Source: a virus
DNA length: 64,000 bases
Direction: 5' to 3' (one strand)
IMG/VR virus record: IMGVR_UViG_3300021379_000006
Location: 1 to 64,000 of that record
The position numbers and the translations under genes were made by a program. The notes below the pieces were generated by a model. The model was not told the origin of the DNA and made no database searches. It saw nothing but the letters and a program-made list of their open reading frames with translations. This document shows positions 6,293 to 56,800 of this stretch, one piece after another (position 1 is the first letter of the stretch; each line of letters begins with the position of its first letter).

Positions 6293-6318
6293 GGGGAGGG
6301 CTATGGCTCTCCCCTTTT
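6293..6318 (+). terminator. Intrinsic terminator
   Basis: GGGGAGGGC-TATG-GCTCTCCCC followed by TTTT. Confidence 0.75.
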
Positions 6319-6321
6319 ATT

Positions 6322-7299: not shown

Positions 7300-7300
7300 T

Positions 7301-31588: not shown

Positions 31589-33214
31589 ATGAGCTATAAA
31601 AAATACTATTGGCTGAATGAAGACAGCCGCACCTTTTTATCAAGAGGTTATATAAATGAAAGCCCTGAGCAAAGAATTAAAGACATTGCAAATACTGCAG
31701 AAAAGTATTTAAAAATAGATGGGTTTGCACAAAAGTTTGAGGAGTATATGGCAAGGGGTTTTTACTCTTTGTCTACTCCTGTGTGGATTAACTTTGGTAA
31801 GCAGAAAGGTTTACCTATTAGTTGTTATGGTTCTAATGTAGATGATACTCTAGATAGTATCCTCAACGCTGGTCGTGAGATTGGCATGATGTCTAAGTAT
31901 GGTGGTGGTACTAGTGTTTATCTAGGTAACATTAGAGAGCGTGGTGCTACTATATCAACCGGTGGTACTGCAGATGGACCAGTTCACTATGCAAGAATGT
32001 ATGATACAGTTGTTGATGTCTGCAAACAATCAGAAGCAAGACGTGGTGCTTGTGCTGCTTGGTTACCAGTAGAACATCCTGATATCATAGAGTTCTTAGA
32101 TATTGGCAGTGAAGGAAATCCAATTCAAAATCTTCAATATGGTATTACAGTAACTGATGCCTGGTTGCAAGAAATGAAAGATGGAGACGCTGATAAACGT
32201 AAGATATGGGCAAAGATCATTCAAAGACGTAATGAGTTTGGCTTCCCTTATATTATGTTTAAAGATAACTCTAATAACAACTCTCCTTACAAAGAGTTAG
32301 GTCTAGAGATTACAGCATCAAACCTTTGTTCTGAAATACAACTTCCAACAGATAGTTATAACTCTTTTGTTTGTTGTCTTGGTTCTATGAACTTATTGCA
32401 TTGGGATGAGATCAAAGAAACAGACGCAATTGAAACATACGTTCTGTTTCTTAACGCAGTAATGGATGAGTTTATTACTAAGTCTTCTACTTTACCCGGC
32501 TTAAAAAGAGCTCATAGATTTGCAAGTCAACATAGAGCTATTGGCTTAGGTGTATTGGGATACCACTCATACTTTCAATCTAAGCTAATTGAGTTTGAAT
32601 CTCTTGAAGCTAAGATGCTTAACAATCAGATTTTCAGTACACTAAAGAAAAGAAGTGAAGAAGCATCTCAATGGTTGCATCAATTCAAAGGATATCAATG
32701 TTTAAGAGAAGGATTTGCTAATACAACATTGTTAGCCATTGCTCCTACAAAATCAAGTAGTTTTATTCATGGTCAAGTATCTATGGGTATTGAACCCATC
32801 AAGTCTAATTACTTTATTAAAGATTTAGCTAAGAGTAAAACAGTATATAAGAATCCTTTCTTAGAAGCTGAACTTGAGAAGTATGATCTAAATACAGAAG
32901 AAGTTTGGGAAGATATCTTAAAGAAAGATGGATCTGTTCAGCATTTAGATTTTCCAACCAAAGCTGTATTTAAATCTTTTATTGAGATTAGTCCAAAAGA
33001 ACTTGTTCTGCAGGCAGCTCAAAGACAAAAGTATATTGATCAGGCACAGTCATTAAATCTAATGATTCACCCTAGTGTATCTGCTAAAGATATAAATCAA
33101 TTATATCTGTACGCTCATGAAGAAGGTGTGAAGACTTTATACTATCAGTTTAGTCAAAGTTCTGCTCAAGCATTCTCTAGAAATATTCTTGAGTGTGCTA
33201 GTTGTGAAGGATAA
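31589..33214 (+). CDS. nrdA: Ribonucleotide reductase class I, alpha subunit (short, no ATP cone)
   Basis: PISC, RRGA, SNLCSEI, VCCL, APT, TLYY, C-terminal CASC; probable start ATG 31589. Confidence 0.95.
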   Translation: MSYKKYYWLNEDSRTFLSRGYINESPEQRIKDIANTAEKYLKIDGFAQKFEEYMARGFYSLSTPVWINFGKQKGLPISCYGSNVDDTLDSILNAGREIGMMSKYGGGTSVYLGNIRERGATISTGGTADGPVHYARMYDTVVDVCKQSEARRGACAAWLPVEHPDIIEFLDIGSEGNPIQNLQYGITVTDAWLQEMKDGDADKRKIWAKIIQRRNEFGFPYIMFKDNSNNNSPYKELGLEITASNLCSEIQLPTDSYNSFVCCLGSMNLLHWDEIKETDAIETYVLFLNAVMDEFITKSSTLPGLKRAHRFASQHRAIGLGVLGYHSYFQSKLIEFESLEAKMLNNQIFSTLKKRSEEASQWLHQFKGYQCLREGFANTTLLAIAPTKSSSFIHGQVSMGIEPIKSNYFIKDLAKSKTVYKNPFLEAELEKYDLNTEEVWEDILKKDGSVQHLDFPTKAVFKSFIEISPKELVLQAAQRQKYIDQAQSLNLMIHPSVSAKDINQLYLYAHEEGVKTLYYQFSQSSAQAFSRNILECASCEG

Positions 33215-33249
33215 ATATATCATTAAATCTTAATGATGCACAAAACATC

Positions 33250-33288
33250 AAGGGGTCAGTCGCATAAGTGGCTGGCCCTTCTTGTTTT
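33250..33288 (+). terminator. Intrinsic terminator after nrdA
   Basis: GGGTCAGTCGC-ATAA-GTGGCTGGCCC (with G-U pairs) followed by TTCTTGTTTT. Confidence 0.7.
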
Positions 33289-33315
33289 AGAGGTATAAAA
33301 TTTGTATATTATTAT

Positions 33316-33426
33316 ATGGATGCACACAAATTTTTTAAAACTGAAGAATTTAAATCTTTAAGTTGGCCTAAAAGAATATGGCTACGCTTACAGGTGGCAT
33401 TCTTTGAAACTATACAAATGTTATGA
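33316..33426 (+). CDS. Small peptide (36 aa, not in track) heading the two-component operon
   Basis: MDAHKFFKTEEFKSLSWPKRIWLRLQVAFFETIQML; ATGA overlap with the next gene. Confidence 0.55.
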   Translation: MDAHKFFKTEEFKSLSWPKRIWLRLQVAFFETIQML

Positions 33427-33611
33427 AAAAGATTACCTCTGTAAGAGCAGTATATTTATTAATGTCTCTTGTTTTATTAGCTGGTTTTTTATTTAAAAAC
33501 TGGTATGTAATATTATTTGTAGTTGTTATGCTACAAGTAGGTGTATGGACAAAATTCTGTCCTAGCAAATGGCTCTTTGAAAAACTAGGATTCCGTAAGA
33601 GTGATTTGTAA
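33423..33611 (+). CDS. DUF2892 / YgaP-like small membrane protein
   Basis: Two TM helices followed by TKFCP...LG. Confidence 0.7.
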   Translation: MKKITSVRAVYLLMSLVLLAGFLFKNWYVILFVVVMLQVGVWTKFCPSKWLFEKLGFRKSDL

Positions 33612-34516
33612 TGAGTGTATTGGATGGAATATCTATAAGAAGTAGAATATGTCTGCTCTGTGCTACACTGATTATGTTGACATTCTTTGTCTTCAAAACA
33701 TTAGTAGTATTTAGATATATACATCATAGCACATTCACTCATTACTTTGAGTGGTTATCTGTTATTGCTTTCATGCCTCCTTTCTTTGTTGTAGTTCGTG
33801 AGTTTCTGCAAAACAAAGAACAGATTAAAGATAGCCTATCTCAGAAGAACATATACCTAGAACATGCCGCAAAAATCATTAGACATGATATGCACAGTGG
33901 TATCAATACTTACTTACCGAGAGGGATCAAGTCCCTTAACCGCAGACTTACTGAAGAAAGTATTGAAGAACTCAGAATTAAAGCACCATTGCAGTTAATA
34001 AGAGATGGTCTACACCATGCTCAAAAAGTGTATGCTGGTGTATATGAGTTTACCAATCTGGTAAAAGAGAACGCTGTTTTAAACACAAAGCCTTGTAATC
34101 CTAAAGAGATTTTAGAAGATTATTTAAAGCTGACAGCATATAAAAATCAAGTAATAATTGATGACTCTGTACCAGAACGGCTGGAATTAAATGAAGCTTT
34201 GTTCTGTACAGCCATAGATAACTTAATCCGTAATGGATTAAAATATAATGATAGTCCTACTAAATGGGTTAAGATTTATCATGAAGGGTCGTACCACAAA
34301 GGATCTTTTATTGTAGTAGAAGATAATGGGCGTGGTATCACACAAGAAGAATTTATAGAATTAAGCAAGCCTTATTCCAGAAAAGAAGGTCAAAAAGAAC
34401 AAGGTACTGGATTAGGTCTAAACATATGTATTGAAATATTAAAAGAACACGGATTTAAAATATCCGCAGAAAAGAAAGAAAAAGAAACCGGAACCAAAAT
34501 AAAAATTGAATTATGA
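33611..34516 (+). CDS. Sensor histidine kinase
   Basis: 2 TM; H-box IRHDMHS; N-box NLIRNGLKY; G1 EDNGRGI; G2 GTGLGLNIC. Confidence 0.93.
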   Translation: MSVLDGISIRSRICLLCATLIMLTFFVFKTLVVFRYIHHSTFTHYFEWLSVIAFMPPFFVVVREFLQNKEQIKDSLSQKNIYLEHAAKIIRHDMHSGINTYLPRGIKSLNRRLTEESIEELRIKAPLQLIRDGLHHAQKVYAGVYEFTNLVKENAVLNTKPCNPKEILEDYLKLTAYKNQVIIDDSVPERLELNEALFCTAIDNLIRNGLKYNDSPTKWVKIYHEGSYHKGSFIVVEDNGRGITQEEFIELSKPYSRKEGQKEQGTGLGLNICIEILKEHGFKISAEKKEKETGTKIKIEL

Positions 34517-34950
34517 TTAATACACTTATGTTAATTGATGATGAGAACCTCTTCCACTTGGTGTTTGAAGATGCTTGCTCATTGTTGGATATGGCCCTAT
34601 CTATAGAAGCATTGGATAGCTCTGATGAAGCTGATGCTAAATTTAAAAAATGGTTTCCTGATGATCCAGATCATGAGAGACCAGAATGTGTATTTGTAGA
34701 CCTTAATATCATTGGATCTTCTTATGATGGCATTGAAATGATTCGTAAAGTAAATTATGAATATGGCAATGGATGTGTTATTGGTATTATATCAAGCTCA
34801 TCTGATACAGAAGAAATAGACAAAGCTAAAGCTGTTGGAGCGCAGTTTTGGATTATAAAGTCTGATGACATTGAACCACGTCTTGAAGAATTTATGAAAG
34901 ACTATGATGGTTATCTAAATAAGACCGCTCCGTTTAAAATATATAGGTGA
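34513..34950 (+). CDS. Single-domain response regulator (receiver only)
   Basis: LIDDE acidic pocket, FVDLN phospho-Asp, DGIE, ISSS, GAQFWIIK. Confidence 0.92.
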   Translation: MINTLMLIDDENLFHLVFEDACSLLDMALSIEALDSSDEADAKFKKWFPDDPDHERPECVFVDLNIIGSSYDGIEMIRKVNYEYGNGCVIGIISSSSDTEEIDKAKAVGAQFWIIKSDDIEPRLEEFMKDYDGYLNKTAPFKIYR

Positions 34951-35528
34951 TAGAGATTACAGAACATACAAGAAACATTTTATTAGAAGTTGCTAAGAAG
35001 AAAAAAATCTATGTAGAAGGCAGCTTTCTAAAACTATTACGTGCACCTAAAGATGATAAGGAGTTTGCAGAATATCTTGCTTTATGTAAAAAGAAAGATA
35101 CTGAAGCTCGTAAAAAAAGATTACAAGTAACCAAACAAGTTCAATCTCAAAATAAAGAATTAGAAGCAGCTGCTGCAGAGAATGAAAAGCTTATGGCTGA
35201 TCTCAAAGATGCATTAGAAGAATCTAATGAACTCAGAGCTCAAGCAGAACAAAGCATGGACAAAGCTTTACAAGATTTAGACTTGATGCAAAAACGTAGT
35301 CAGTTTGAACTTATAGGTACTATTGTAAGAGTAGCACTTGTTATAATTGTAGGTGTGGGTGTTCTTACTACTGTAATGTATGGCCTTGCTTTGGTGTCAG
35401 GCACTGATACTCAGATAATTGGAAGCACTTGGTCTAATATGTTTGGTATACTCTTAACTAATGCATTTTCTATTGTAGGTACTATAATGGGTGTAAAGTA
35501 TGCAACTGAAAAATCGGAGGAAAAATGA
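34947..35528 (+). CDS. Coiled-coil protein with two C-terminal TM helices
   Basis: Heptad-rich central region followed by two hydrophobic segments; overlaps the receiver gene. Confidence 0.7.
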   Translation: MIEITEHTRNILLEVAKKKKIYVEGSFLKLLRAPKDDKEFAEYLALCKKKDTEARKKRLQVTKQVQSQNKELEAAAAENEKLMADLKDALEESNELRAQAEQSMDKALQDLDLMQKRSQFELIGTIVRVALVIIVGVGVLTTVMYGLALVSGTDTQIIGSTWSNMFGILLTNAFSIVGTIMGVKYATEKSEEK

Positions 35529-36106
35529 AAAAGTATTTTAATAGTATACAATCTGTAGCAATAGCTGTATTGATTATTGTCATATTACTTATGAGATCTT
35601 GTGATAAGCAAGATCCTGTAGAGCCTATAATTATTACAAAGGTTGAAACCGTCTTTGATACAATCACTAAAGAAGTACCTGTTTACGTACCTAAATACGT
35701 ACAGAAAATAGAATACATTCATGACACTATTGTGGATAGCACGCCCATTGATACTGCATCTATACTAAAAGATTACTTTGCTACTTATGTATACCAAGAC
35801 AATCAGGAACTTGATAGTCTTACCTTAACTATAATTGATTCAGTATCACAAAATAAAATTTTTGCACGCACTATACAGTATGATCTTATCTATCCAACAA
35901 CTACAATCACAAAAGAAATCTATCTAAATCAAAGAGAGTTTTACTGGGGGATAGGAATGCAAGGTAGAACTGATCAACTTAACTATGTTGGTGGTGAATT
36001 ACTATATAGGAACAAAAAGAAACAAGCATATGGTCTTGGTGTAGGCATAAACCAAGATCTTCAGCCTGTAGTATCCGGAAAGCTTTACTGGAAAATAGGA
36101 AAGTAA
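35525..36106 (+). CDS. Membrane-anchored envelope protein, spanin-like (putative)
   Basis: Hydrophobic N-terminus ending LMRSC, DT-rich stalk, C-terminal amphipathic beta strands ending GKLYWKIGK. Confidence 0.5.
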   Translation: MKKYFNSIQSVAIAVLIIVILLMRSCDKQDPVEPIIITKVETVFDTITKEVPVYVPKYVQKIEYIHDTIVDSTPIDTASILKDYFATYVYQDNQELDSLTLTIIDSVSQNKIFARTIQYDLIYPTTTITKEIYLNQREFYWGIGMQGRTDQLNYVGGELLYRNKKKQAYGLGVGINQDLQPVVSGKLYWKIGK

Positions 36107-36177
36107 CGGCTAGGTTGCTAGAGGTTGGGGCTTCAACCCACTTGGCTTATCACTCCCTCTACAACCCAGCTCAAACA

Positions 36178-36198
36178 AATCACCGTCTATAGGTGATT
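36178..36198. terminator. Hairpin at the convergence point, terminator for the minus-strand block
   Basis: AATCACC-GTCTATA-GGTGATT with a T-rich tail on the minus strand. Confidence 0.55.
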
Positions 36199-39100
36199 AT
36201 TTAACATAAAACTCTCTTTCTTGATCAAAGTTCTGCCATCTCTGTATTGTGTACAAGAAAGGTAATACGTCATTCCATTCTTTAGACATTTTAAGATCGC
36301 CTTTTCTTTTACCTCTTTGATAGACAACCTCTTTATTTTTTCTAAACTCTTTATCATCTAAGAACAAACCATATATCGCAGTTTGTCCTGTTGAATATAC
36401 AGCTTCTGAGAACTGACCAAGAACGTTAGCTGATGCAATTGGATTCTTAATTAATTGATAAGCCTGTGGCCAACCAACAACTGGCCAGAAAGCATAAAGT
36501 TCTTTTGATGCTCTATCTGCATTGTACTTTAAAAGGTTTTTCAATCTCTTTTCAATTTCACCATCATCATCATCGGTTGCAAGTACACCACCTAAGAGCT
36601 CAGTTAATGCCCATATAGTTAATACTAAACCAATTTCTCCCATTGTAGTATAAGCACCTGTAATTTTATTTTTGATACGTTGCTCCACGTGACCATAGTT
36701 TATACCCTCTTCTCTTGCAAAATCTTCTGCAAGTTTTTCAGCATAAACCTTATTTAAGTTTTTGATATCTGATAGATTTTTAAACGCAAACGCAAAGAAA
36801 CTGGTAAAAGATCTATAACGTCCCTCTACCCAACCTAAGTTCTCATCGTATTGCTCTCTTCTCATTCTAGATTTGATTGAAGGAGCAACCCATTTTTTAA
36901 ACTGTACGGCAAGCTTACCAAGAAAATGTGATTGCATAACCATTCTATCTGCTCGTGCATAGCTACCATGAATTCTTTTATTAACCTCTCTAATTTGATT
37001 GCGTAGCTTATATCTATATTGATCATTCCACTCAACCTCATTACCATTCATATCATAGATTTTATATTTTGGATCTATGACAATTGTTTGATTTTTACTG
37101 TCCCATGTAGATGCTTCATAAAGGTTTACTTCATTTCCGTTTTCATCCACTGCTTTATGTGAGGCTACGATTGCCATACCAATTTTAGTTTGAACATTAT
37201 ATTCAAAACTATCATTAAGCAAATAGAACCAGCTACCAGCCTTTTGAAAGTAGCTATCTTGATCCGTTTCTCTGATCTCTGTTTTGCTATCCATCATACG
37301 GAGTACATCAACCCAACCCTCCCATTTAGTCATGGGTTTTTTAGGATCATAGTAACCTTTCTTACCATCAAGTATATACCCAGTTCTTCTAACTGATTTT
37401 GCTAGCACCTGCTCAACATTAAATTCTTTTTTCATCTGAAGGTATGCTCTCCTTTTAAAGAACCTACCACCCATGACTTCAATTGTGTTATTTAATAAAC
37501 CAATTGTAAGGTTATTAATGTTACCCAAAGGGTTTGTTGCTACATATGCAAAGGAAGAGTAACCCATTAATAGACCAGACATTTTTTCTAATGCAGTCTG
37601 AGTAAGATTTTCATTGTCATAGAAAACCATTCTAGCCCATTTTTTTATTCTCTTTTGAATATTGCTTTCAAGATCGTTTTCTCTATTACCAACAGGAACC
37701 ATCTTTCTAACCTTACTTGCACCAGAAACAATTGCATCTCCCACAACGCTAACAACATTATCTGATTTTGCTTCTGGAGCAAGAACTTCTCTTTTATCAG
37801 ACACCTTAATAAAAGAAGTAACAATATCTTCAATTGTAGACATGACTTCAAAGTTTTCAGCCATCGTATTAAACTTAAGAAGACTTGTTCCAAGATCAGT
37901 GTTTAGTGTTTCTCTTGTAGGTTTTTTTCTTAGTCTTTTTTCCTCTACATCTAAAATATCCATCTTATTTCTATATTCTGTTTTAGATATAGCTTTAGAA
38001 TCTAATCTGGTTTTTAGTAAAGTTCTCTTCTCTTCAATCTTTTCAAGATCTTTTTCTGTAGCTAAATTGCCTGTGTAATAAATAGGAAGAGTATTTACAA
38101 TTTCACCTTTCTCATTTACCACAACTCTTCTATAACTACCTGTTTCCTTAAAGAAGTCACCAACATTTCTCTTCATCTTAGCAAACATCTTAGCTACAAC
38201 AGGACCTTCTCTTTTGATTTTGTTTGCAAGAATTGTTGGTATTCTACCAGCCATTTGTTCCATTACATTAGGTGGAAGTTTTTTAGTTAGCTCCTCCATT
38301 GTCTCAACATAGAATTGATAGAACTCTCTTCTTGCAATAGATAACTCATCTTCTACTGCAGGATTCATTATAGCATCATACTTTTCATTAAGCATGCTGA
38401 CCTTTTTACCATTTACAGTAGCCTGAGCTTTTGCATATCTATATTTATTGTGGGGTACCCAAATTTGACCTGGTGATAAAGTTCCTGTAGGTTCACCATT
38501 TTTCTTATCCATAAAGAAAGTTTCTTTGTACTCACCATAGGTTTGTCTAAACTTTCTCCAAGATTTGGCATCTACAGATCGTTTCTTTTTCCAAATAACA
38601 AAACCACTTGCTGTTATTTCAGGTCTTTCATACTTTGCTCTTAAAGTTTTAAACTCTTCTGTGTATGCATGATAATTTCCATCTACAATATCACCTTCGC
38701 TAGTACCTCTCTCTGCTCTCCAGAATCTAGCATTTTCTTGTTTTAGCTCATAAAGCTTCTTATTATATGCTAACTCTTCTGGCGTAGCTTCATCCTCATT
38801 GAACTTTTCAATGTATTCCATTCTATTACCATCTTCATCAAACAGTAAGTCTCTAAGTTCTTTGATCTTATTATAGTATTGAGGACCCAATCTCTGAACA
38901 ATATATCCAGTTGGTAAACCAGCCTCATCAAACTCTAACATAAAGTTATAAAGATCTTCCGGTTTTGTACTTGGATCTAACTTAGCAAGCTTACCAGCAA
39001 CAGCTCTAATTTTATTTTCTCTTGCTTGTGCTTTATCTAAGTATTCTTGCTCTTTAGCTTTATATATCTTATCTAATACAGCAAGTAGGGTGTCTCTATT

Positions 39101-41847: not shown

Positions 41848-44800
41848 TTACAATATACAAGATTTAATATTATCTAAGAAGTCTTCGTCACTATTATAGT
41901 TCAGATCTGGATCATTTCTTTGGGCAATAAAGTCTTCAAGGTCATTTATGTTTTGATCACGTAGTTTTTCTCTAGCTTCTGGATTTGTTTGTACATTCTC
42001 ATCCCAGAAATCAACAAGAGCTGGATACTCTTCTTCTAAGTTTGTTTCTTCAAGTTGATCAAACAAACTTAAACTTACTGCAGGTGCCTCAGAAGCATCA
42101 ACCTCTTGAGAAGTTACATCGGCTTCAACTCCACCTCCACCACCTGGAGCATATTCGTCAAAGTCTTCTGCAGTAAGACCTAAATCATTTTCCTCAAGCA
42201 TCTCCATTGTTAGATCAGATACCTTAACTAAGTTTTTTCCAACGCCTGCTGGAGCAAATGAATTAAGATCAACGTATACAGTATTGCCTATGTAATCAAT
42301 ATCATAACCCATAATTTTTGCTTGAGATAAAGCAGCTTGTTCTGATACAGGTAAGAACCCTTCTTCAAAACCACCTTCTTTTTCTAACTTTTCAACAAAG
42401 GTACGGATATCAGTATAAGCAGGACGTTCAAATCCACCACCATCAAACATAAAACCAATACCATTTTGGTAGTTAGAACCTTTCATCTTAATCTCTTCAT
42501 ATACACCAGCATTACCAATAGACACACCCTCTGAAGAGTTAATAATATTATCCTCTGTTACCGTAACAGGTGTATAGGTTTCTTTAAGTCTAAAATATCT
42601 AACCGTTTTATTTTTCTTGCCGGTAACAACTTTAAGAACTGCAGGTAATTCTACCACAAAGGTGCGCTTACCATTTATGATTATATCTTTTTTAATTACA
42701 AAGCCTTTTCTTTCTAGTTGGCTTATGTTTTTTGCAAGTTTCTTAAATTGATTTTCATTAAATCTGTCACCAAACTTTCTGGTGTTTTGAGTATTTCCAC
42801 TTCTCTTAAATGGTTTTACACCTTTATATATATCAACAATAAATACGTTTTCTTCATTTGTCAAGCTCATTGCAATAGGAGCTACGTTGATTGCTCTTTG
42901 TGTTGTACTACCCGTTTCGGTAAGCACCCCTTTTGTAAGAGAGTAACCAAACTCTTGACGTAATTTTTGCTCAATATAATTGTAAATATCTTTGCTTGCG
43001 GACTTTAGTTTCTTACGTTGCTTTTTGTCCAATAGTTGTTTAGGGAATACAATCGGTTTACCTGACTCTAAGATATCATTAACCTCTGTATCAAAACGCT
43101 CAACAAATGAATCAAGATCTTCACTATCAAACATTGTAGTAAGATCATACATTAAAGTTAATGGTAATGCATTTTCCATTCCTCTAACAGTAGAAGATCC
43201 AACTGTACCCAATTGTTTTGCGTTATCAACATAAACATATACCTTATCAGGATTTGCTTCTACAATCTTTTTATTAACCTGACCACGAAGAACTTCTGTT
43301 TCTTCAAATACTTGTTTGTAGAAAGGTATATTGCTTACTCTATTAAGAAGTATATTATTCTTGTTTGACTGCAAGTATCCAAGGACAAAGTCATTTAATA
43401 GTTCACGATAGCTCATACCAAACTTAGACTCAAACAAATCTAGTCTATCCTTTTTCATCATATCATGGATATCCTCAATACTTGTACTAAATGTATCAAG
43501 CAATGCTGGGGTAACAGCTTCAAGTAAAGAACCCGCACCAAACTGCAAACCATCTTTAACCATCATGTAATGGATAAGGTGTGTTGCCTCTAGTCTATTA
43601 TTAGAAAAGATTTCAATAAATGAATTCTGAATTCTAAGCTTATCAATATCACTTCTCTTACCAAACGTGTTTGATTCTGCCTTATGAATACCAGACTTAT
43701 TGTCAAGATCTCTAGCATTCTCATTAAAAATAAACTCATTTAAGAAGAAGTTATCAGGATAAATCTCTCTTAACTGATCTACCAATCCGTTTATATTTAA
43801 CGCAGCTCCAGATTGAGGATAAATAAACGCATTATTCAAAGAACCAAGAGACATTTGTGATCCCTTCTTATCTAAAGAATGCATATATGCTTTAATAGTT
43901 AAGTAAGAAAGCAAGTCTTTACCAATCTTATCTTTTTGTTCTGCGTCTAGTACATAATCATTGCTAGTTAAGTTACGTAGAGTAGCAGAAAGCAATCTAT
44001 CAAATGCAGGAGTCTTAGAAACAAATACATTAGGAAGAATAACATTACTAAAGTGATTTAGTACTTTAACCATGTTTGCTTGCCATGCATCTGATTTGAA
44101 TATAGGTCTAACATCTATAGGTACAGGTGCACCCTTAAACTCTAGATCTGCAAACTCTTTATCAGACAATCCAACACCTAGATTTTTTATCTCTGTAAGT
44201 TTTTGATTTACGTCTGCAAAAGTTCTACCTGGTCCCTTACTGATATTCATGACACTACTCATATTAGATAAGAAGCTCTTCACGTTATGAGCAGCCATAA
44301 ATTGTTTGAGTATAGAGTATATAGCAGAAGCTTCTTCAAAATCCATTTCTGGGTTAACTACTAAATCGTCTCCCTTTCTAATTTGTTCTTTTAGCAATTC
44401 ATCTGAAACCTGTACTGTATTTGTTCTAATTCCATTATCTGCAAAATCCAATTCTAAAGTTTTAATTATAGATTGAATTCTTGTAGCAATACCAGGATCT
44501 GTTGCTCTTCTTTTGTTATTAGCAGCAAAGTATTCTTCTCTAATTATAGGATGATTAACCAAAAGAATAGAAGTCTTAATTGGTACACCTAATTTAGTAA
44601 GAGTGGTAACTACAGCAAGAGCATCTCTATTCAAACCAAGCTTAGCTGCAAGACGTTCTTTAGCGTTATCCGTCATTGCTGTAATCAATGCTGAAATAAT
44701 AAACTGAGTTCTATTCCCTTGCGTTTCTTTACCATCTTTGGCTAGTCTTTCATATTGCTCATTAAACTTATTGTATCTAATACCATTAAATTCAATTTGA

Positions 44801-47800
44801 GGAATTGTTTGACCACCAACAACTTTACTACGGATTTCAATATCAAATTCTCCTAATAGGTTTAAGTATAAGTTTGGTAGTACGGCAGCACCAATTGCAC
44901 CGGCACCTTCTTTATTATTCTTAAATGCTCTTCCTTTACCAAATAGGTTGTCTACGTCTATGCCTTCTTCTTCAACCAATTGAGCTAGTTCTGGCAATTC
45001 TTTTTGAATATCCTCCCATACATCAGTTAATGGTGTAAGTACAGCAGGATCATAAGCAATAGGATTTTCTCCATCTTTTCTTGCAACCGTATTACCTTCA
45101 TTACCCCACAAAGCAAACTTATAATCTAATAATTGATTGTTTAATGCTGCTTCATATGGATAACCAAACTCATCTCTATAAGCAACAAACTCTTCTACTG
45201 TTGTTGGTAAGCCTAAAACTTTTAATGCAGTGGTAATTCCTTTGCCAATACGTTTTGCTTCTTCGTCTGTAAAACGCCCTTGCTCTCTTAATCTTCTTTT
45301 ACCTTTTTCAAGAGCTTTTGCATATACAGATGATGGAGAGTTTATTTCTTTTCCAACATAGTGTATGTAGTCATCAAACTGTTCTTGATCAGTTCTTGTG
45401 GTATCACCATACTCAATGAACTTACCATTTTTAATATACCACTCTTTCATTTGAGTGTATACCTTATCAATATCAAAGTCAGCTCCTGATATTTCAATAA
45501 GTTCTTTTGAGAATATTGCAGTGGAACCATAAGATGATGGTAAGAAGTCAACCACCTTTGTAGCCAATGCAGAGTGCTTATCCTGTGAAGGAATACGTAC
45601 AGCAAACATTTTAGCAAATACGTCTGGCATAGCCTTGGCTGTTTCCTCTATCATCTCCATAATTTCTTCAGAGAACGCAGGCATTATAGATTCCGTGTAT
45701 CTTACCCCAGTAAAGTTTCCATCTTGATCATACTCTTTAAGATTGTGTCTTAGTTCATCTCTAACAATAACACCTTTACCATTTGATCTTTCAATTGCAT
45801 CTGCTAATCCTACAAGATTACCCTCAGAGTCTATGTCAATTTCTATTGGTAATGGATTGCTGTTATAAACTTTATCTCTAATGACTTCAAACTTATCTGG
45901 AACACCGTTTTCATCTACAGAGAAAACACGTCTTACAACCTTCACACCACTATCAGACATAAGAGCTAAAGCATCTCCGGCTACTTTTTCTGACATTGTT
46001 TCTTTGGTAAAGTATGATAAGAATAGTTGCTCAAACTTATCAATCACCATAGGGTTATTCAAATCATATTGACCGCTTGGATCAAAGAACTCAATAACAT
46101 TACTAGACGCTTGACTTGCTTTAAGACCTTCTTGAGCAAATTGTAAAAAGTCTCTTAACTCTATTGTCAAAGACCCCAGCTTTTTACTATCACCTAATGA
46201 TCTCATTGCAGTTTCTAAACTGAAATCAGCAATAAGATTCACCTTATTATGATATTTAAGATTTAGTCTAGCAGCTGTTCCTCTATTATAGAATTCTCTT
46301 AGTTCACCTAAAGTTTTAGATACATAACCATCTAGAGTTTTAATCATCACCTCTACGTCATCTGCCTGTTCTGAAGTAATCAAACTTCTTAGCTGTGTTG
46401 GATCTGTAATCTTTTGCTTATTAGAAGGGTTCACCAATTGCAATCCCATAAATCTAGCATTAAGCATTGTGTGTGGCAATGCTTGAGCATTAGAATTAAA
46501 CTGACCAAATGCTGCTTCATTGCTAACAACATTTGGTTTCATCATTTTACTTGCACTAGCTGGTGCAGCCATTGCTATTGTTTGATCTCCATCAGCTTCA
46601 ATCTTTTCAAGCTTCAACCTTAAGTTATGTAGCTCTTCATATTGAACTTTGGCTGTTCCATCTTTTCTTGTCGTAAGTTCTGGAGTTAAAACAACCGCAG
46701 ACATTTTAAGGAATGTTTGACCATCACCATAAACAAGTTTTAGTGAGTTAAATACACTTCCTTGTTTGATATGACCACCAGCGGCATAGTATTCTTTTGC
46801 TGTTACCTTTTCACCTCTTTCTAATTTATCTAATAGTTCTGCTTTATCTTGTGTAAGCTCTGCAAAACCAAATAGCATATGACGCAATGCTTTGGTAGTA
46901 ATATAAACCTGAGCATCTGTTCTCTCACCTTGACCACCAGAATACTTTCTATCAAATAAAGTATCACTAAATGTAACAAGAGATATATTTTCAGTTGCAT
47001 GATAAACACCACGACTTTCATCAATAACAGGTGTGTAAGCACTCTTATATGATGCATTTTGCATCTTAGCTCTTTTAACCTTATCAACAGAATCTTTTAG
47101 AGATATAGCTTGATCACCAAGTAATAATTGATTAATTGCTTTTGTATTTAACCAATCATTAAAGAAGATCTGCATTAAGTTATAATCTTCATTATCTCTA
47201 ACAAGATTTAACTGTTCCATTGCGGCATCACCTTGTGCTACACCATTGTCATCAGTAATACCATTTAATATATCTGAAGAAATTAAATCTTTAACACGCA
47301 GGTTATCCAGTTCTTGAGCAAATCTTTCATACTCTGACATCAATCTAGTTTTAAGTAATTCTTTGAAACTAGTAAGTGTTATTGATGATTCATTAAGCAT
47401 ACCAACAGCTTGTTCTAAAGAAATGTCTGGATTATTTATTGCTATTTGTTCTAACTCTTCTTTAAAATCAAATTCTGTTTGAAGGGCAATTTCTTCCTTA
47501 AATTCATCAATAGGAACAAGTTCATAACCAAATCTGGTCTTTTTCCCTTCCAAGAAATCCTTCATTACTTTAGTCTCAACATATAGTGTAGTGTCACCAA
47601 CATTTACAGCAAAGTTAAATTGCTTAGACTTTTCTAGTTGAACTGCATCCCCCATTGATTTAACAATGTTAGATATATTGGTATTATCAACTTTTGTTTG
47701 ACCCAACGCTCTTAAAACAAAAACACCTTCTTGTTCTCCAGATCTAACTGTAACATTTGCTCTTGTATTTTTTAGCGTTAAACCTATTGTTTTAGATTGA

Positions 47801-50800
47801 GCATCACTTACATATACTGTCTTTTGTGTACCATCTAATACTCTATTTCCAATTTCTGAAGTAAACTTAGGATCTTTAGCATCAACTCTTGTTTCTTCTT
47901 CTCTGGTTGTTTTAAGCAAAGAAGCTGTGTCATTAAACTGGTAAGCTCTACCTTCATTATCAGTGAGAACACCATTCTTAGCATTGTATCCTTCTATTGG
48001 TACTTTATCTTCATCAGCTTTGCTTGATTCTCTTTGAATTCTTGAAAACTCTCTTCTAAGTTCTTCAAAGAATAAATCAACAGTAGGTTCTGTAATTGTA
48101 GGTTGACCACTTGCATCAAATTCAACAGTCTTAATAATAGGTAAACCAAGTAAATCACCAGTATTAGATGCTTCAATAACTCTAATAAGAACAGGAGCCA
48201 ACGCAGTTTCTACAATCTCACCTTCTTCATTTGTAAATACAACAGTTTTATTCTGTTGTTTAAATGCCTGGTAATTAGCTAAATAGGAATTCACTAAAGT
48301 TGCAGTAAACTCTGCACCAGTTAGACTACCATATGTTTTACCATCTTTATCTAGAGCTACCCCACCATTTTCATCTAATGCATTTTCATCAGTAGATCCT
48401 AATGCACTTTCTTTTGTACCAGCAATTCTAAGAACGCTTAACCTTTCTTCTTCTGACAACTGCATGAAAGCAGGACTGTTCAAAAGAATATTAGTTAGAT
48501 TATATCCTTCCTGACCTTGTCTTAAATCTTCAAGGAAGGTTGCATCATTTAATTGTTGTACCATTTTTAGATGATACGTTGGCATTTGGTGAGCATAAAC
48601 AAAATTACCCTCTGCATTTAAGAATACACTTTGTCCAATTGTCTCATCAAACAAGGCATTATTCTTTGCAAGCAACTGCAATCTAGATTTAATACCACCT
48701 TTTCTTGTAAACAAGTAAGCTGATTTTCTTCTTGATGTTTTATTTAGCTGTAGTTGTTTTGTGAACTCTATGATTGTATCTCTACTAATCCCCTCAGCTT
48801 GTTTGTTACTTTCAACTAAAGATTGTTGATACTGAGTTCTGTTTTGAATGTTCTCAGCAATAGTAAATTCAATGTAAGCGGGGGATAGTTTTATACCTAC
48901 AGTCTCATATATATCATTAGATATCTGAGCAGCAACAGATGAAAGCTTAGAGTCTTCCATTGCTTCCATGGTTTCCAAGTAAGGTAACAAGCTTTCAAGA
49001 GCATCTACTGCATTGAGCATGTCAACTTCACTTTCCTTGATAGCTTTAAATCTTTCATTATGTGACTGTTTCCATATATCAATCTGATTAGCCGCATCGT
49101 CTCTATTAGCTGCATTGTACAACAATAGTTTTCTACCTTGAACGCCTCTTTTTGTATTAACGTGAGCAAATAAATAATCTACTCTAAAGTTTTCAAGACC
49201 TTTATACAACTCATTAAAGAATACACGGTTTGTGATACTATCAAGTATTTCTTCTCTTGTTCCAGTTAATACAATCTCTTCTGATGTACCCAATGTTCTA
49301 AAGATCTTATCTACAACAGCTGCTGTTTGTCTGTTACCTTTAGAAAATGAAAGCATTGCTCTAAGAATACTAATCTCATCTGTTAGATTTTTCACAGACT
49401 TAAGAAGACCATTATAAGCACTCTGATAATCTACAGGAATAAATATTGCACCCTTGCCGTCTAGTAATTCTACATTACCAAACTCATCAGCTGCTTCTAT
49501 CTTGGTTGTGCCTATAAATGCTCTAAATGCAACAGGCAAGCTAGAGAAACCACCAATCATTGATTGATCAGTATTCCAATCACCAACACCTCTTAAACCT
49601 TGATCATATTCTATTTCCTCATTCGCGTACTCCTCATCTTTTATTTGTCTATCAAATAAAGAAATATATTGAGCAACTGCATCGTATGTATTTTTCTCAT
49701 ACTCTGCTTTCTTAATTGTCTTTTCTACAGTTTCTTCACCAATCACACCACCCAGTGCAGTGTAAATTTTGATCATCTTTTCAATTTGATCTCCAGACTT
49801 ATTGCTATTGTGATCTGCCATAGGATCATAGAGTTCTCTAAAATCCTTAATGACTCTCATAACAAGTTCTTGTCTAGTTTCTTGATCTTCTATTTCACCA
49901 CCCTGTAGTCTTGTCAAGTATGTACCAGTCATGGTTCTGATTAAAGTATCAGCTGTATCAGGATCAAGATATTTTTTAGCAACACCTTTCTCTAATTCTA
50001 TTTCATCATAAGCAAGAACCTTAAATGCTTCTAATGTAATACCAGGCTTGAGACCTTGTGTAAACATATTATTCTGTACACCGGCTGATTTATATTTACC
50101 AGCATCAATGTTTCTGAATAACTTTTGTAATTCACTAACGCTATATGTACCAAATACATTCTTAATCCACTCAATAAGTCTATTAAAGAATGACTTAATT
50201 ACAGAACTAGTTTGTGTTGACTTAGGATTAGCTTTAAACTTCTCAAACTCATCAGCCATGTATTCTTCATAGTACTCTTTCTTGAGTTGCTTTTCGGACA
50301 TGTTCTGATATTTCTCAGCAGAGTTTTTGAACTTCTGTAGTTCTTCTGCAAGGGTTTTGCCTTCTGCTTTAAGCTTAGCTCTTACTTCATCGGCCGCTAT
50401 AGCCAAGTATTTAGCTTGCTCTTCTTCGCTAAGTAATAATCTAAACACTGCATGAAAAGCTTCATGGTATCTAAAACCTTTTGAACCTACATATACAGTA
50501 CCACCTATTTCTAGTTGACCAGCAAGATTTCTAAGATGCATAGCAAACAAACCAACAGGTACACCATTAGTTTTTAGTCTTTCTGCTACTTCACTAATAT
50601 CTCTAATCTGTACAAACTCAGGTAGATTTTCTGCAGCCCAGGTAATAAATGTATCAATATCTTCAACATCTTCAGCTGAGAAGTCTTCATCTACAATCTT
50701 AGGAGCAAAGCTATTTAAGATTCTTTCTCTTTTCTTGAACTCTTCATTAAGTTCATTGTAAGCTTGATCTACACCCCCAACTAAAATGTTGGTTAAATCT

Positions 50801-53800
50801 TTATTTGTTAGTTTACCAGCATCAACTTTTGCTTTTAAATCAGCAACGTAAGCCTCTCTAGCAGCTTTAGCTTTATCATATTCATTCTTAGCTTGAACAT
50901 AATCATCATCTGCTTTAGTCTGACTCTTTAATTGAGACGCTTTAAACTCAATCATGTTGGTAAGTACATTATATACTACACCCTCTCTTTCAGAAAGAGC
51001 TTCACCAACGGCATACTTAGCAGCAATAGCATCTAAGAATTCAGAATCAATACCTTCAAAGTTGTTTGCTCTAAGTTCTTCAAACTCTTCTTCACTCAGT
51101 TCATCAACAGTAGCTGCAGACAATTGATTATTTAAGTTGTCTAATGTTTGTTGAGCATTTGAGTTATCTGCAACATCATCATCAGCTACACTATCTAGAG
51201 CTCTTTGAGCACCAATATATTCTTCTACAGAAGCGTCATCTACAGAGTAATCTAAGTATACATCATAAAATGCTTCAGGATTAATATTAGTGGTTGTAAT
51301 GTATCTAATTGCTTGTGCTGAAATCTCGGTAGGTATATTCTTTCTAAATGAATCAGAGGTTGCTTTTAACTTCAGACTTTTTACAGTTGCATCTGCATTC
51401 ATTGCAGCATTTAAAGCACTCATTAATTTATCAAAAGAATCAACTTGTGTTGTAGATGGGTCTATAAATGCGGAGAATAGCTTTTTATCATTTACTGTAT
51501 CAATAAGTACTAGCTCTAAGGCACCACGAGCACTTACCTTTAATTGAGCATCATAACCAGATCTCAATGAAATATAAAACTTATCATTGAACTCATCATT
51601 AAAGGTGTCGTTGTATCCTTTAGACTTAACTACTTTTTTACCTTCTACAATATCAACGTTTTCTTCAACTGTTTTAGCAGCCCGGTCAAGCATCTCTTGT
51701 AAAAGTCCATCCTTGCTTTCTTGATCAAGAGCTGTTGGTTTTAATGGAGCAAATATAATATTGCCGTTAGGCATTTTAATTACAGCATTATATCTATCAT
51801 TTTTACTCTTAAGAAAATCTAATAATGATGTACCATTCTGTAATGTCTTATTATTAAGTTCAGCTAAAACTTTATTTCTTAATTCCTTGTGTTCTTTAGA
51901 ACCTTTGGGATAATTTGTTTTAACATCTACAATTCTATTTCTTTTCTTAGTTTGAGGATCTAATCTATAACTATAATCAATTACAACAAATTCTCCATCA
52001 TAAGTACTGTATGGTAAAGATTCTACTGCGGTTTGAACATCACTATAAAGCTTGCCGAATCCTTGTCCAAACCTCAGCATTTCTACAAAATCAGATAAGA
52101 ACATGTTTTCAACGTCATCTGTTCTATCTAAAATTCTTTTTCTTATTATTTGCTGAGTTGCTAAGTCTCTAATACCTTTAACAGGATCTGAGAAATATTT
52201 TTTTGCCTCTTCTTTTGAAAGAGTAAATGGATTTACTTCTGAACCATCTTCTGCAAAAAACTTTAAATTACCAGAAGGCAATTGAATATCTATAGAGTCT
52301 AGGGAACCCTCCTGCCCAGCATCTCTTAATATCTTATTTATTTTATTTCTAAGCTCAGGATCAGCTATAACAAGTCTAAAGCTGTGAGATTCGTCAGTAT
52401 ACTTAATTAATGGATTTGTCTTACCATTGGTACCATTGGTACCATTAAAGTCAGATAGATTAGAAGATTTTTTATTTTCGCTAACAACTACTCTAATGTT
52501 TTGCAAATCTTCTTGAGAAAGATTTTGAAGTAATACAGATAGTATTGTCTCACCTTGTTCTCTATCAAGAGTATCTGACATTGGATATATACCCAAGATG
52601 CTTTTAGCACCAGCTCTTGGCATATCTTTAGTAACAAGGGTGTCAGCAAATGACTCTTCCAATACAGAGAATTTAGACTTAAATTCATCAGCAGTTACTC
52701 TGATAGCAGCTTTCTCTCTTTGCTTGGTTGTTTTGTATTTCTCTATATCTTCCTCTGGTACTATAAATAGGGTGCCGTTAGATTCTACTTTAGCTGGTGT
52801 ACCTAAAGAAACATATCTCTTACCTTTCTTATCTACTACAATATCACCATAGTGAAGGGTTTGTCCCGCAAACTCAAAAGGATCTGTTTCTGGTACTGTG
52901 CTTAATAATGATCTCCAAACTTTTTTAGCATCTGAGATCTTAGAGTATGATGCTCTAATTTTGCTTTTGTCTATACCAGCTGCTTCATAGAGTTCATCAG
53001 AAATCTCTGTACCGTTAGAAAGCTCAACAATATATTGATCTACAAGCTTACCCTCTACCTTAGCTTTAGTTTTTCTAATTCTAACTCCAGCACGCTCTTC
53101 AACAATTTTATCTTTGCTGTTTGCAGGAGTAGATTGTTTTTGATCAGAAAGAACTTCAAATGATAAACCAACGCTTTCACCAGCATCTATAACTAGTTCA
53201 CGCACTTGGTCATTATCTTTATTAGCCTGGATCCATTCTTTGAATCCTCTCTCTTCTTTAATTACATCACCTATATTTGGTTTACTCTGATCTAAAGAAG
53301 CAACCCATAATGCTTTTAAGTCCGTAAGAATAGAAGCAACCTTCTGTCCTTCTTTAGATGCACTATATTGTTCAAGAGATAATCTTTGCTTACCAGTTGC
53401 TGTTCTTGCAGCGTTTACACCTTTGTGTATTCTTCTAAGTATACCTTTTGCAAAAGCATTTACAGACTCGTCATTGTTGATGACCTTTGCCGCTTTATCA
53501 GAGTCAGGTGCATCCTCATCAAGTTCTTCTTCTAGATCTTCTGTATCTTGTACTTCTTCTGGCTGAGTTAATTTGATATAGTTATTTTTGATTCTCTCAA
53601 TCTCCATAACTTTATCTGCATCAACTGTTTTTTCAACAAGACCGTTTTCTGTGTAAAAAGTTTGAAGAAACTCTGGGTTACCGGTTTCTAAGAATAATTC
53701 TGCTTCAGCTGGATCAGGTACAATACCTAATTCATCTAAGTCTTTTAAAACTTGTGCTGCTTCTTCCTTATTTATTGCAGCATCAATTCTTTCTCTTACT

Positions 53801-56800
53801 GCTTTTCTGTCTTGCTCATACTGCTGTTTAAAGAAAGCAGCGCCTCTTTCTACAATTGATTCATAGTTACCAGGATTAGCCATAAACTCAACAGCTTTAT
53901 CATAAGCTCTTGTTCTATATTGTAGCTCACCATAGTCAACCATTTTCTTTAAGACCTCTTTTACTTTAGCTTTGTTTGCATAAGCTCCATTTTCTTCTGC
54001 TAAGAATTCAATGTAAGCAACAAATGCTTTTTCTAAAGTTGATGTTTCAGTTGACTTAAGAATCTTTTCTCCATTAACTTCTTCAAGCTCACTTGCAATG
54101 GTTGTAAGACTACCAATCTTTCTTTTATCAAATCTAGTTGCACCGTCTTTGCCTTTAGTTGATATTTGATTCTTGGGATCTGTTAATACCTTACGATAAT
54201 TATTAAGGAGCTTAAGTTTCTTTTCTTTTTTAGCCAACAACTCTGCATCAGCTTCAGATTCTTTTAATGCTATAATCTCCGCTTGTAGTAAAGAAATCTC
54301 TCTTTGTATAGTATCTGGATCCAGAAGAGTTGTTAGATCACTTGCGCCTAACTTAGATATATTAATACCACCCTCTGTTCCAGGAACATATACTAAATCA
54401 CTTGATGATAGTTCATTAGCAATTGTTTGCATCCTTTTTAAAGAATCTTCAAATGCTGTTCTAGTAAACATTGCTAGGTATCTTGCATGATTCCAAGCTA
54501 TTTGTTTGTATAACTCATTATTATACTCTCTAGATCCTTTCTTATAAGCATTTGCATCATATGGATTTGGGAACTTATCATTAAGATCATTGTAGTTATC
54601 TTCTATCTTATATGATTTATCTAAGAAATCTTGCAATCTCTTTCTAACCTTACCACTCTTTGCATCTTTAGCTGCATTAGGAAAAGCTTGAGCAAGTTCT
54701 TCATCTGATAGGTTCATTAAATCTTTTAGTTGTTTTCTAAAAGGTTCAATCATATCATTCTGCAGCAAAGATTCTAATTGAGCAAACTCTAAGTAATCTT
54801 GGTTATCTTTAAAACCAAGAGGATCTTGCTCATATGCAGATCTTTGTTGTTCTGCAGCAGCTTGTCTTACCTTAACAAAGTTTAAGTTTGCTGTATCAAA
54901 TAAAGAATTTAGTTCTGCTTGTTGATCCCATTTTTCATTTGCAGTCTTTACAAGAGTGTTTAAAAGATTTTCTCTATCCTGCTTGTTCTTCTGGAACTCC
55001 TCCTTATTAAAGATTCTATTATACGTATCTGGTACTGTATTATAGATAAGTTTAGATCCACCACCTAGGATACCCCCGGTAGCAAACCCAGACATAAAGA
55101 CCTCAAAACCTTGAGCTGAGTATTGACTATCAACAGCATTATTTAATGCAGCATTAAGTGCAACACGAGTGTCTGTTGCTGGATCCTTAAGCAGTTCGCT
55201 ATAGTAATCTACAACACCAACTTGTAAACCTTCTTGGTAAAGTTCCTGAACACCTTCTGCAATATTAGCTGCAAAGAATCTTAAAGCACCGTGGGCACCT
55301 TTCATCACATAATCCCCAAAACTATATGCATTTCTTCTTTGTTGTCTACCAGCTTTGGTCCAAATGCTTTTCTTTACTTCAAAAGGACTTCTTGCTATCT
55401 TACCATCAACACCAACTGTTTTCTTAGTTTGGAGTATTTTTTTACCGAGTTTGCCAGTACTATTGTCAAGTGCTCTAGCCAATCCTCTACTAAAAGGACT
55501 AACAACAGCGCCTAAACTAATTCTATTAGTCAAATAAATTACAGGAGCGTTTGCCCAAGTTGTAGTTGAACTGGCTTTAACCGCTTGTTCTTGAATTGAT
55601 GCAAGCTGAGCATCTGTTAGATTTTTTTGACCTGTTCTATCTCTTTCAATTTGAATACCATTAGACATCATGGTATTATAAACAAACCCAGACTCAAGAC
55701 GGCTTTCATCAAGAGCTAGATCAATCATTCTGATATCTCTGTAAAAACCACCAAAAGCAGCATACCCTTTACCAAGTTTATGTATTGCAGTACCTACATC
55801 TTTTGTTTTATCAAAGCTTCTTAGGGCTTGCATTGTTTCAGGTAAGAATATTCTTCCTGCTAGATTTTCTCCTGATTTAATTCCTGTCCAAAAATCACGG
55901 GCTTTATCAGTATTTCTTAAAGCACCAACAATAGATCTCCCACCTTTAAAAGCTCTACCAATAGCAAATGCATCGCCCATTCTGTTAAACATCCTTGTAA
56001 GTCTGGCCATATTATAAGCAGTTCTTGCAGTTGAAGCTGCTGCTGCTCCTGCAGCTGCTACACCAGATGCGCCACCTGTTACAGGTGTTGCAGCAGCTAG
56101 TGCTGCCGTTCCTGCCCACATTGCAATTTCTTCTGCTGCAATGCTTGACATAATACTAATACTATATGCGGAGTTCAATGCAAATCTGTTAAATGCTGCA
56201 CCAAATCCTTCACGAGTATCATTACCAATTCTCAGGGCTTCTTCCATTTTTACAGCAGATTCTGTGTCTGGATCTCCATCAAATAAATCAAATACACCTT
56301 GATTATTATTATCAAACAGTGCATCTGATAAACCAAAGAAACTAAAACCGGGTGAAAAGTTTTCACCAAATTGGCTCATTGCTCTACTAAAGTTATCATA
56401 CCATGTAGAGTTCTCATTGTAATAAGTCTCATTGTCTCTATATGGATTAAAGCCTAAGTCTGCAAATTTTGGATGAGCATAAAAATGATCAAAGTTTGTT
56501 TCTCTAATACTAAAAGATGTTCTTGGCTTAATATCTCTTTGACTAGTTGGTTCAGAAAATGTTTGTTTAACATCAAACCACGTGTTCGCAAAATCTACAG
56601 GCTTTTGTTGAGGAACTCCTTGAGCAGATCCAGGAACACCATTGATATAAGGACTTATGGTAGTAACCATATTAAGATACTCATCATCTACAGTTTGTAG
56701 ATAATCAGGATCATATCCTAAATCTAAAATATCAACTGGTTCATATTCTCTATTTGCTTGTGATGAATTTGAAAACCCCTGTTGATCTAGTGGTTTGTTT

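Follow-up and report, generated by a model that had tools for sequence, protein, structure and literature searches.

The 64,000-base window analyzed here (bases 1-64000 of the IMG/VR virus record IMGVR_UViG_3300021379_000006) carries, at 33316-36106, an operon that encodes a sensor histidine kinase, a single-domain response regulator (the receiver), and a coiled-coil membrane hairpin protein, referred to below as CCTM. Judged by gene content and order in relatives, these three genes are the conserved unit, and we consider it quite likely, on sequence grounds, that they form a working phage phosphorelay with the hairpin as its output. The predicted output of this relay is thus probably a membrane protein and not a promoter. 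The decision under control is most likely lysis, as suggested by the gene neighborhoods of relatives and by proteins in which sensor domains are fused to the same hairpin. The full chain, in which a phage phosphorelay gates the membrane hairpin and ends in the timing of lysis, appears somewhat more probable than its negation. The broadest version, that two unrelated marine phage lineages share a sensory lysis switch in which a relay or fused PAS/GAF domains gate a new holin- or antiholin-type hairpin, is put forward tentatively and falls short of an even chance. An earlier note on this DNA had proposed a phage-borne phosphorelay that controls a post-translational decision, which it left unnamed. 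The phage setting, the intact kinase-receiver pair, and the non-DNA output hold up, while its picture of a six-gene unit and of a rare arrangement does not.

The kinase (33611-34516, + strand, 301 aa) has two predicted transmembrane (TM) helices separated by an external loop of ~15 residues, followed by a dimerization and histidine phosphotransfer (DHp) domain and a catalytic and ATP-binding (CA) domain; no HAMP or PAS domain was found in this protein. Its match to HATPase_c (E = 7.5e-16) scores 59 bits against a cut-off of 26.4, and a faint match to HATPase_c_5 (E = 0.014) lies under the cut-off. The closest solved relative is Thermotoga HK853 (Protein Data Bank (PDB) 3dge), found at E = 9e-11, or at 8e-15 with a family profile. 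Among 65 distinct relatives, H92, D93, H95, N204, N208, D238, G240, G242, G267, and G269 are invariant (65/65), and G265 is kept in 64, the remaining one having a gap. These data bear out the description of a kinase with intact N, G1, and G2 boxes and make an H-box probable. The stretch H-D-M-H-S-G-I resembles the H-box consensus H-E-L-R-T-P-L, and H92 is the likely phospho-acceptor by sequence, with H95 equally invariant.

The sensor portion of the kinase varies. The 65 distinct kinases comprise 35 short forms, 27 that bear a PAS domain, and 3 others, and the transmitter, receiver, and hairpin stay constant throughout. The PAS insertion sits after the same two TM helices, the kinase of locus L047 combines a signal peptide with a periplasmic domain, and one kinase on locus L119 has two PAS domains. 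As read from these alignments, swappable sensors on a conserved transmitter, receiver, and output are the usual pattern of a signaling family.

The receiver (34513-34950, + strand, 145 aa) was modeled with AlphaFold from 33 sequences at a pLDDT of 90 and a pTM of 0.85. The model has a (beta-alpha)5 fold and an extra C-terminal strand (F-K-x-Y). When it was compared with the PDB using Foldseek, 460 of the best 500 matches had E<=0.001; the matches listed were all of the receiver type (CheY-like or response-regulator), one of them AI-designed, and the leading ones include CheY4, EutV, and single-domain phytochrome regulators. A phmmer search at E<=0.01 matched no natural solved receiver, and NCBIfam gave no receiver match. 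All 60 sequences aligned share D9, D10, D63, S94-96, W113, and K116, so the claimed receiver with intact DD, D, S, and K residues is confirmed by both the alignment and the CheY fold of the model. The beta5-alpha5 face and the C-terminal strand are invariant too. D63 and K116 remain invariant in the wider 33-sequence family, whose members (140-160 aa, 23-49% identical) also keep the C-terminal F-K-x-Y tail. Among 1.84 billion representatives, receiver relatives numbered 117 at E<=1e-3, 52 at 1e-10, and 6 at 1e-30, many of them fragments. The protein is best described as a divergent, isolated branch that its predicted fold and residues place in the receiver superfamily, and its predicted phospho-acceptor is D63. 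It is also the most conserved gene of the module, with 71-95% identity across viral loci. Because the receiver is a single 145-aa domain that lacks an output domain in both the profile search and the model, output through protein-protein contact is the natural reading, as the earlier note had held.

CCTM (34947-35528, + strand, 193 aa, GTG start) begins with a conserved cytoplasmic N-domain of ~70 residues, which is followed by a coiled-coil stalk whose length differs by up to ~45 residues between relatives. In its model, one continuous helix spans residues 38-151 and runs into TM1, which a short outer loop connects to TM2; TM2 is polar and very conserved. A hydropathy scan likewise gave two TM segments, so the earlier assignment as a membrane coiled-coil protein stands. 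The Atlas clusters that hold CCTM are 100% viral. A role for the N-domain resembling that of a histidine phosphotransfer (HPt) domain was considered and set aside, since it has no invariant His. Two additional ORFs occur in the gap between receiver and hairpin in some relatives. One, of 163-166 aa, is found in 7 loci (L092:6075-6563, L093:6435-6932, and five more) and shows hydrophobic stretches by eye and weak coiled-coil-type Pfam matches at its C-terminus, without a family; the other is a different, acidic ORF of 109 aa in 5 loci, also without a family.

The fusions bear directly on the role of the hairpin. CCTM is matched by 804 longer proteins; of the 120 among them that were listed, 114 have PAS-family domains and 4 have GAF domains. 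In two aligned fusions, the sensors stand ahead of the same stalk and hairpin (CCTM residues 60-192, 56-62% identity) and take the place of the N-domain. None of the 12 full-length fusion loci in IMG/VR has a kinase or receiver within 5 kb. An endolysin N-domain lies directly 3' of the fusion in 5 of these 12, and in locus L132 an enzyme with PG_binding_1 and GH19 domains (both confirmed) lies 80 bases from it. Since the fusions dispense with kinase and receiver, the hairpin itself would be the signaling output, and an effector that can be driven either by a fused sensor or via a relay makes the N-domain a natural docking site for the receiver. A predicted complex of the receiver with CCTM residues 1-120 scored 0.37 against 0.16 for the best control, which weakly favors such contact; the runs concur in at least 96% of contacts, with a partner pLDDT of at least 84. 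In calibration, 58 of 80 solved complexes passed the mark, as did 2 of 110 mismatched pairs; with scores <=0.60, it was passed by 7 of the 80 solved complexes and by both of those mismatches.

We fetched 116 viral loci, which represent 78 distinct module sequences. All but one of them encode the kinase (115), and 114 each have the receiver and the hairpin; the order never changes, and the few misses fall at contig ends. The trio is usually preceded by a small two-TM protein and a 36-aa protein. Synteny is therefore conserved for the trio; the sixth gene of the supposed six-gene unit occurs in 3 of the 116 loci. The module is also not rare in this phage group, contrary to the expectation that intact kinase-regulator pairs are uncommon. 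IMG/VR holds 51 relatives of the kinase and 541 of the receiver, and thousands of metagenome protein clusters (90% identity) match as well, namely 4260 of 6045 candidates for the kinase and 3842 of 3849 for the receiver. Cultured phages present a different picture: INPHARED yielded just three weak kinase matches (26-31% identity), no DNA match to the 3-kb operon region, and no phage carrying the module.

The carriers belong to different kinds of phage. Kin of the phage studied here have it, as shown by contigs with a TerL 69% identical (G005) or a major head protein 94% identical (G007) to its own. So do T4-like myoviruses, namely G001 (187 kb), G002, and G003 (253 kb), which encode Gp23 and Terminase_6N, and G006, which has a Gp23 fragment; no relative of this phage's TerL was found in G001-G003 or G006. 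By these marker genes, two unrelated virus lineages carry the module. The receivers of the T4-like carriers are 80-88% identical to the one in the window, and the best 80 of the 541 IMG/VR receiver relatives have 79-92% identity, whereas among closer kin the DNA polymerase is 50-60% and the large virion protein 27-35% identical. Eleven receiver pairs were submitted to rate estimation, of which 6 were skipped for length mismatch. The 5 scored pairs gave pS of 0.64-0.89 and dN of 0.04-0.24; saturated synonymous sites with low dN indicate long purifying selection and not recent capture or transfer. Together with the invariant residues, these values agree with an intact, selected kinase-receiver pair.

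When 185,579 species genomes were scanned by pattern, 1 close relative (L119) emerged, on a contig of 13.5 kb that had been binned with a Verrucomicrobia metagenome-assembled genome (MAG). This contig encodes T4-type topoisomerase II subunits and, at 3923-8618, an expanded module with a 546-aa two-PAS kinase, a 245-aa coiled-coil ORF, a 407-aa kinase, a receiver, and a hairpin; its receiver is 68% identical, and its G+C is 42.5% versus 33% in this phage. Given the topoisomerase subunits and the expanded module, L119 is most likely a mis-binned virus. The scan thus favors a virus-borne clade over a recently captured host operon. Three loci from other samples (L003, L025, and L099) repeat the gene order and both junctions, a recurrence that argues against a chimeric assembly. 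The junction check pointed the same way. In three DNA runs, short contigs at 90-100% identity span the operon borders: terminator-p36-TM62, TM62-kinase, kinase-receiver, receiver-hairpin, hairpin-p193, and p193-intergenic. Runs of 17 studies hold near-identical parts of the stretch and are mostly labeled seawater or marine metagenomes. Run X2, with the odd habitat label of freshwater metagenome, has eight short contigs with 0 differences over window positions 32800-36400.

Lysis genes recur beside the module. In many loci, an ORF of 140-146 aa lies between the genes for the 36-aa and two-TM proteins (p36 and TM62) and corresponds to a Phage_holin_4_1 holin (PF05105), a family that scored above cut-off in all three ORFs tested; its stop often overlaps the TM62 start. 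Endolysins with PG_binding_1 and Amidase_2 domains lie just 5' of p36 or 3' of the hairpin in the same loci. Within the fetched loci, 32 of the 78 distinct modules have a holin, 19 an endolysin, and 36 either one; the holin adjoins the TM62 gene in 20, and each of the 51 matches to a holin or endolysin shares the strand of the module. Where TM62 is missing, the kinase is often preceded by a holin or by another small single-TM protein. No protein of the window matched a holin family. The topology of TM62 and of the hairpin would suit a holin, typically a small protein with one or more TM segments and a charged C-terminus that is encoded beside the endolysin. In relatives their genes lie beside a PF05105 holin and endolysins, but in this phage the endolysin is distant.

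From these elements a mechanism can be proposed. A signal would enter the kinase, here probably via its TM helices or the small membrane proteins encoded before it and in relatives through inserted PAS or periplasmic domains. The kinase would autophosphorylate at H92 and pass the phosphate to D63 of the receiver, and the phosphorylated receiver would then bind the N-domain of the hairpin protein. The resulting change could run along the stalk and alter the behavior of the hairpin in the inner membrane, so that holin-type hole formation would be advanced or delayed and the moment of lysis would shift. The hairpin could be the holin itself or an antiholin-like regulator of a holin.

Several points weigh against reading the module as a lysis-timing relay. 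Neither a holin nor an endolysin is present in the fetched locus of 42 of the 78 modules, and where at least 4 kb was available on both sides, 11 of 35 loci have one. In the present genome, no PF05105 holin homologue was found, and the only endolysin homologue (107246-108163 of the complete record, G000) lies ~71 kb from the module and has no membrane-protein neighbors, apart from an ORF of 160 aa nearby that has a hydrophobic segment at its N-terminus (G000 108540-109022). The one contig with the lysis-adjacent arrangement whose lineage was checked, G006, is from a T4-like phage. The loci are interrelated, and the lysis association may therefore reflect few independent events. A complex score of the size obtained here is, by the calibration and without a strong prior, more often wrong than right. 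For the relay proper, the Response_reg match of the receiver (E = 4.2e-6, 27.3 bits) is under the cut-off of 30.2, Pfam HisKA did not match the kinase, the alignment to HK853 is restricted to DHp helix 2 and the CA domain, and H92 is chosen over H95 on the basis of the H-D-M-H-S-G-I motif.

Two other uses of a functional module deserve weight, although we consider each improbable. The relay might be directed at the host, with the receiver binding a host target, in the way that CheY engages a motor or an enzyme, or draining or feeding the phosphate of host two-component systems and the hairpin serving separately. A conserved host target would explain why the receiver is so much more alike among carriers than the DNA polymerase or the large virion protein, as well as the invariance of its beta5-alpha5 face and C-terminal strand, and the genes that surround the module in this phage are of the replication type. 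Nevertheless, a hairpin gene comes after the receiver gene in 114 of 116 loci, the fusions that lack kinase and receiver show the hairpin as output, the complex prediction leans weakly toward the hairpin, and the receiver has no known host partner. Alternatively, with about the same low likelihood, the relay would sense envelope disturbance and the hairpin would exclude DNA or protect the infection, as a superinfection or membrane-defense device that leaves lysis time unset. Minimal two-TM kinases usually report membrane events, and the kinase of the window, whose outer loop is tiny, is one of them; the small membrane proteins encoded ahead of it could act as co-sensors. T4 itself ties superinfection sensing to lysis proteins (PMC11413866 and PMC8385771, available portions), which makes the two readings overlap. 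However, many relatives and the listed fusions use cytoplasmic PAS or GAF domains, which speak for an internal state and not the envelope, and the neighbors are holins and endolysins rather than known exclusion genes. A defense-system assignment was dropped: PADLOC models gave two weak coiled-coil matches, both on the hairpin.

The remaining explanations are far less probable than these. Two-component systems are typically cellular, and the contig of one relative was binned with a Verrucomicrobia MAG, as would be seen if the operon were a recent host acquisition or an assembly chimera with no phage-specific role. This account is very unlikely in view of the single phage-type contig among 185,579 species genomes, the saturation of synonymous sites among phage copies, the small number of receiver matches (117) among 1.84 billion representatives at E<=1e-3, the repetition of the junctions in independent viral contigs, and the contigs of other metagenomes that span the gene borders. 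Equally hard to credit is a communication system of the Agr or arbitrium kind, in which the 36-aa product would be secreted and sensed by the kinase. A small conserved ORF does head the operon, and the sub-cut-off HATPase_c_5 match recalls the GHKL domain typical of peptide-sensing kinases. Yet p36 has neither a signal peptide nor a TM segment and is absent from many modules, a holin separates it from the kinase in many loci, and the outer loop of the kinase offers only ~15 residues. A phosphorelay that acts on the hairpin and sets lysis time is thus the reading that we prefer.

The small proteins at the head of the operon are less constant than the trio. The p36 gene (33316-33426, + strand), whose 36 aa are counted from an ATG within a 52-aa GTG frame, encodes a protein that is acidic at its N-terminus, ends in a basic amphipathic helix, and has no predicted TM segment. 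It occurs in 83 loci as 43 distinct sequences with a common motif pattern, matched no family in Pfam, PHROGs, or NCBIfam, and is dispensable in some relatives, being absent from modules such as '11 HK RR CCTM'. TM62 (33423-33611, + strand, 62 aa) is predicted to cross the membrane twice; its C-P-S-K motif is invariant, and its C-terminus is charged. The earlier label "DUF2892-like" describes a sub-threshold resemblance: PF11127 (YgaP-like_TM, DUF2892) is matched at E<=0.1 by 14 of 27 TM62 relatives (best 1.9e-4), but the protein of the window scores 14 bits against a cut-off of 25.3. Phage_holin_2_2 is weakly matched by 3 of the 27 (best E = 0.022). TM62 may assist the kinase in the membrane, as an accessory or holin-like partner. 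The idea that its Cys senses thiols or metals, with which the invariant C-P-S-K motif would agree, was dropped.

The last gene, p193 (35525-36106, + strand, 193 aa), encodes a protein with a single N-terminal TM segment or signal anchor (residues 5-23). Nothing scored above threshold in Pfam, PHROG, or NCBIfam, and a likeness to DUF6808 comes from Atlas language-model features alone. The former description as spanin-like reduces to the N-terminal TM segment, as there is no family match and no partner gene was seen. Because p193 is present in 3 of 116 loci, it is a lineage-specific neighbor outside the conserved module. A relative with 27% identity stands upstream of a PAS-PAS-hairpin fusion (L140:3583-4107), and p193-type proteins may accompany the hairpin in more than one lineage. 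Across all six operon proteins, the PHROGs search returned nothing informative except kinase-type families.

The six ORFs all lie on the + strand, and every start overlaps the preceding stop (in order ATGA, TAATG, ATGA, GTGA, and ATGA), which bears out the description of six overlapping, co-directional genes. Upstream, after the gene for the large subunit of ribonucleotide reductase (RNR), a terminator-like hairpin at 33251-33280 (+ strand), with a 13-bp stem and then a T-rich tail, marks the edge of the operon. Directly before the first gene is a weak sigma-70-like consensus match (33286-33315, + strand; 9 of 12 positions). Between 33000 and 36400, 5 terminator-like sites were found versus 1.4 expected, and promoter-like sites in the operon region are not enriched (10 versus 15.4 expected). 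The earlier note had placed the operon between two terminators; a terminator-like hairpin is present upstream, but the scan reported no site 3' of 36106, where short hairpins are visible in the sequence. One RNA run (X23) gave two contigs, both confined to the RNR part (32881-33241), and is uninformative on expression of the module.

The record as a whole is a 117,829-base virus that CheckV rates complete. It encodes a DNA polymerase and a tail-fiber-like protein inside the window and TerL, portal, and major head proteins in the remainder (PHROG matches). TerL is 25-26% identical to those of crAss-like and Flavobacterium phages over 85-91% of its length, and at this low identity the record is placed, by this protein sequence, as a phage distantly related to crAss-like phages. 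Judged by the hosts of these TerL relatives, it perhaps infects a marine bacterium of the Bacteroidota. Both flanks of the operon had been described as phage genes. Profile searches confirmed the RNR small- and large-subunit genes upstream. The other side, described as a virion RNA polymerase block, contains a 4988-aa ORF (window 41848-56814, - strand) with the motif DFDID at 45466-45480, which we regard as a catalytic hallmark of virion RNA polymerases of the crAss type. The same ORF has a zincin-like HEAFH motif near residue 2117 and is far longer than the crAss-type virion RNA polymerases we are aware of. The neighbors of 1887, 1035, 931, and 379 aa had no family in a PHROGs search. The G+C is ~0.33 and even over the operon region, so nothing in composition sets the operon apart as an island.

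Other neighbors in relatives were also recorded. PhoH, polyphosphate kinase 2, and a protein of ~400 aa with a weak EF-hand match lie near the module or a fusion in L002:8055-8738, L132:3764-4864, L015:7910-9100, and L042:8256-9500, and such nutrient- or ion-related genes might hint at the sensed state. In two T4-like loci (L101:2937-3662 and L104:3779-4504), a 241-aa soluble protein directly 5' of a PAS-bearing kinase resembles by eye a T4 gp55-type late sigma factor.

Known systems share parts of this design. In T4 lysis inhibition, holin T works with antiholins RI and RIII (PMC11413866 and PMC8385771, available portions). As far as those portions describe it, T4 also uses a phage sensing device that acts post-translationally on a membrane lysis protein and shifts lysis time, and T4-like phages carry the present module as well. 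According to the same portions (PMC11413866, PMC8385771), a periplasmic antiholin of T4 binds the holin directly, with no kinase or phosphorylation, whereas the module takes its input through a histidine kinase whose sensors vary, and the contact proposed for it is cytoplasmic. No sequence relation between the two systems was found, though no search aimed at one was made. LytSR of staphylococci, which responds to membrane state, is likewise a two-component system over holin- and antiholin-like membrane proteins, Cid and Lrg (PMC5717393, available text). That system is cellular, and LytR is described there as acting by transcription (PMC5717393). Unlike LytR, the module receiver is a single 145-aa domain with no LytTR or other DNA-binding domain. 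The kinase differs too, with 2 TM helices in place of the multi-TM sensor of LytS.

Among cellular two-component pairs, the class I kinase HK853 of Thermotoga shares the two-gene logic with a receiver-only partner, RR468. The H-box helix of the phage kinase was not aligned to HK853 by sequence search, and the family of the module receiver is small and isolated and is marked by a C-terminal F-K-x-Y strand. The phytochrome regulators Rcp1, RcpA, RPA3017, and DrBRR resemble the receiver in fold (TM-scores 0.64-0.74), length (~140-150 aa), and possession of a C-terminal extension; they are 14-22% identical to it and pair with phytochrome kinases in cells, and no phytochrome domain is present here. 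Marine phage histidine kinases appear as auxiliary genes, with cross-family transfer, in the curli (T8SS) clusters of pelagiphages (PMC9599517, available portion). These represent a different module beside CsgF/G/A and FecR, and a receiver or hairpin is not described in that portion (PMC9599517). The term "two-component" does not occur in the available text of a 2026 review of phage communication (PMC13389391). Our literature search, whose coverage did not extend to subscription journals, turned up no description of a phage kinase-receiver-hairpin module, none of two-component control of phage lysis, and no paper that joins DUF2892 and holin.

Lysis timing sets burst size and phage fitness and is usually seen as a built-in holin clock, T4-type inhibition aside. 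If the sensory lysis switch proposed here is real, the burst would instead be decided by a sensed internal or membrane state, and the near-invariant receiver, held ~80-90% identical over very different phages, would be the decision hub. The module would also be a compact two-component system whose output acts at the membrane and not on transcription. Its natural sensor swaps (two-TM, PAS, GAF, and periplasmic) on one output would lend themselves to the study of signal transmission and to the engineering of controllable lysis. In that case, abundant marine phages would tune the killing of their hosts to sensed conditions, which would bear on models of viral mortality in the sea.

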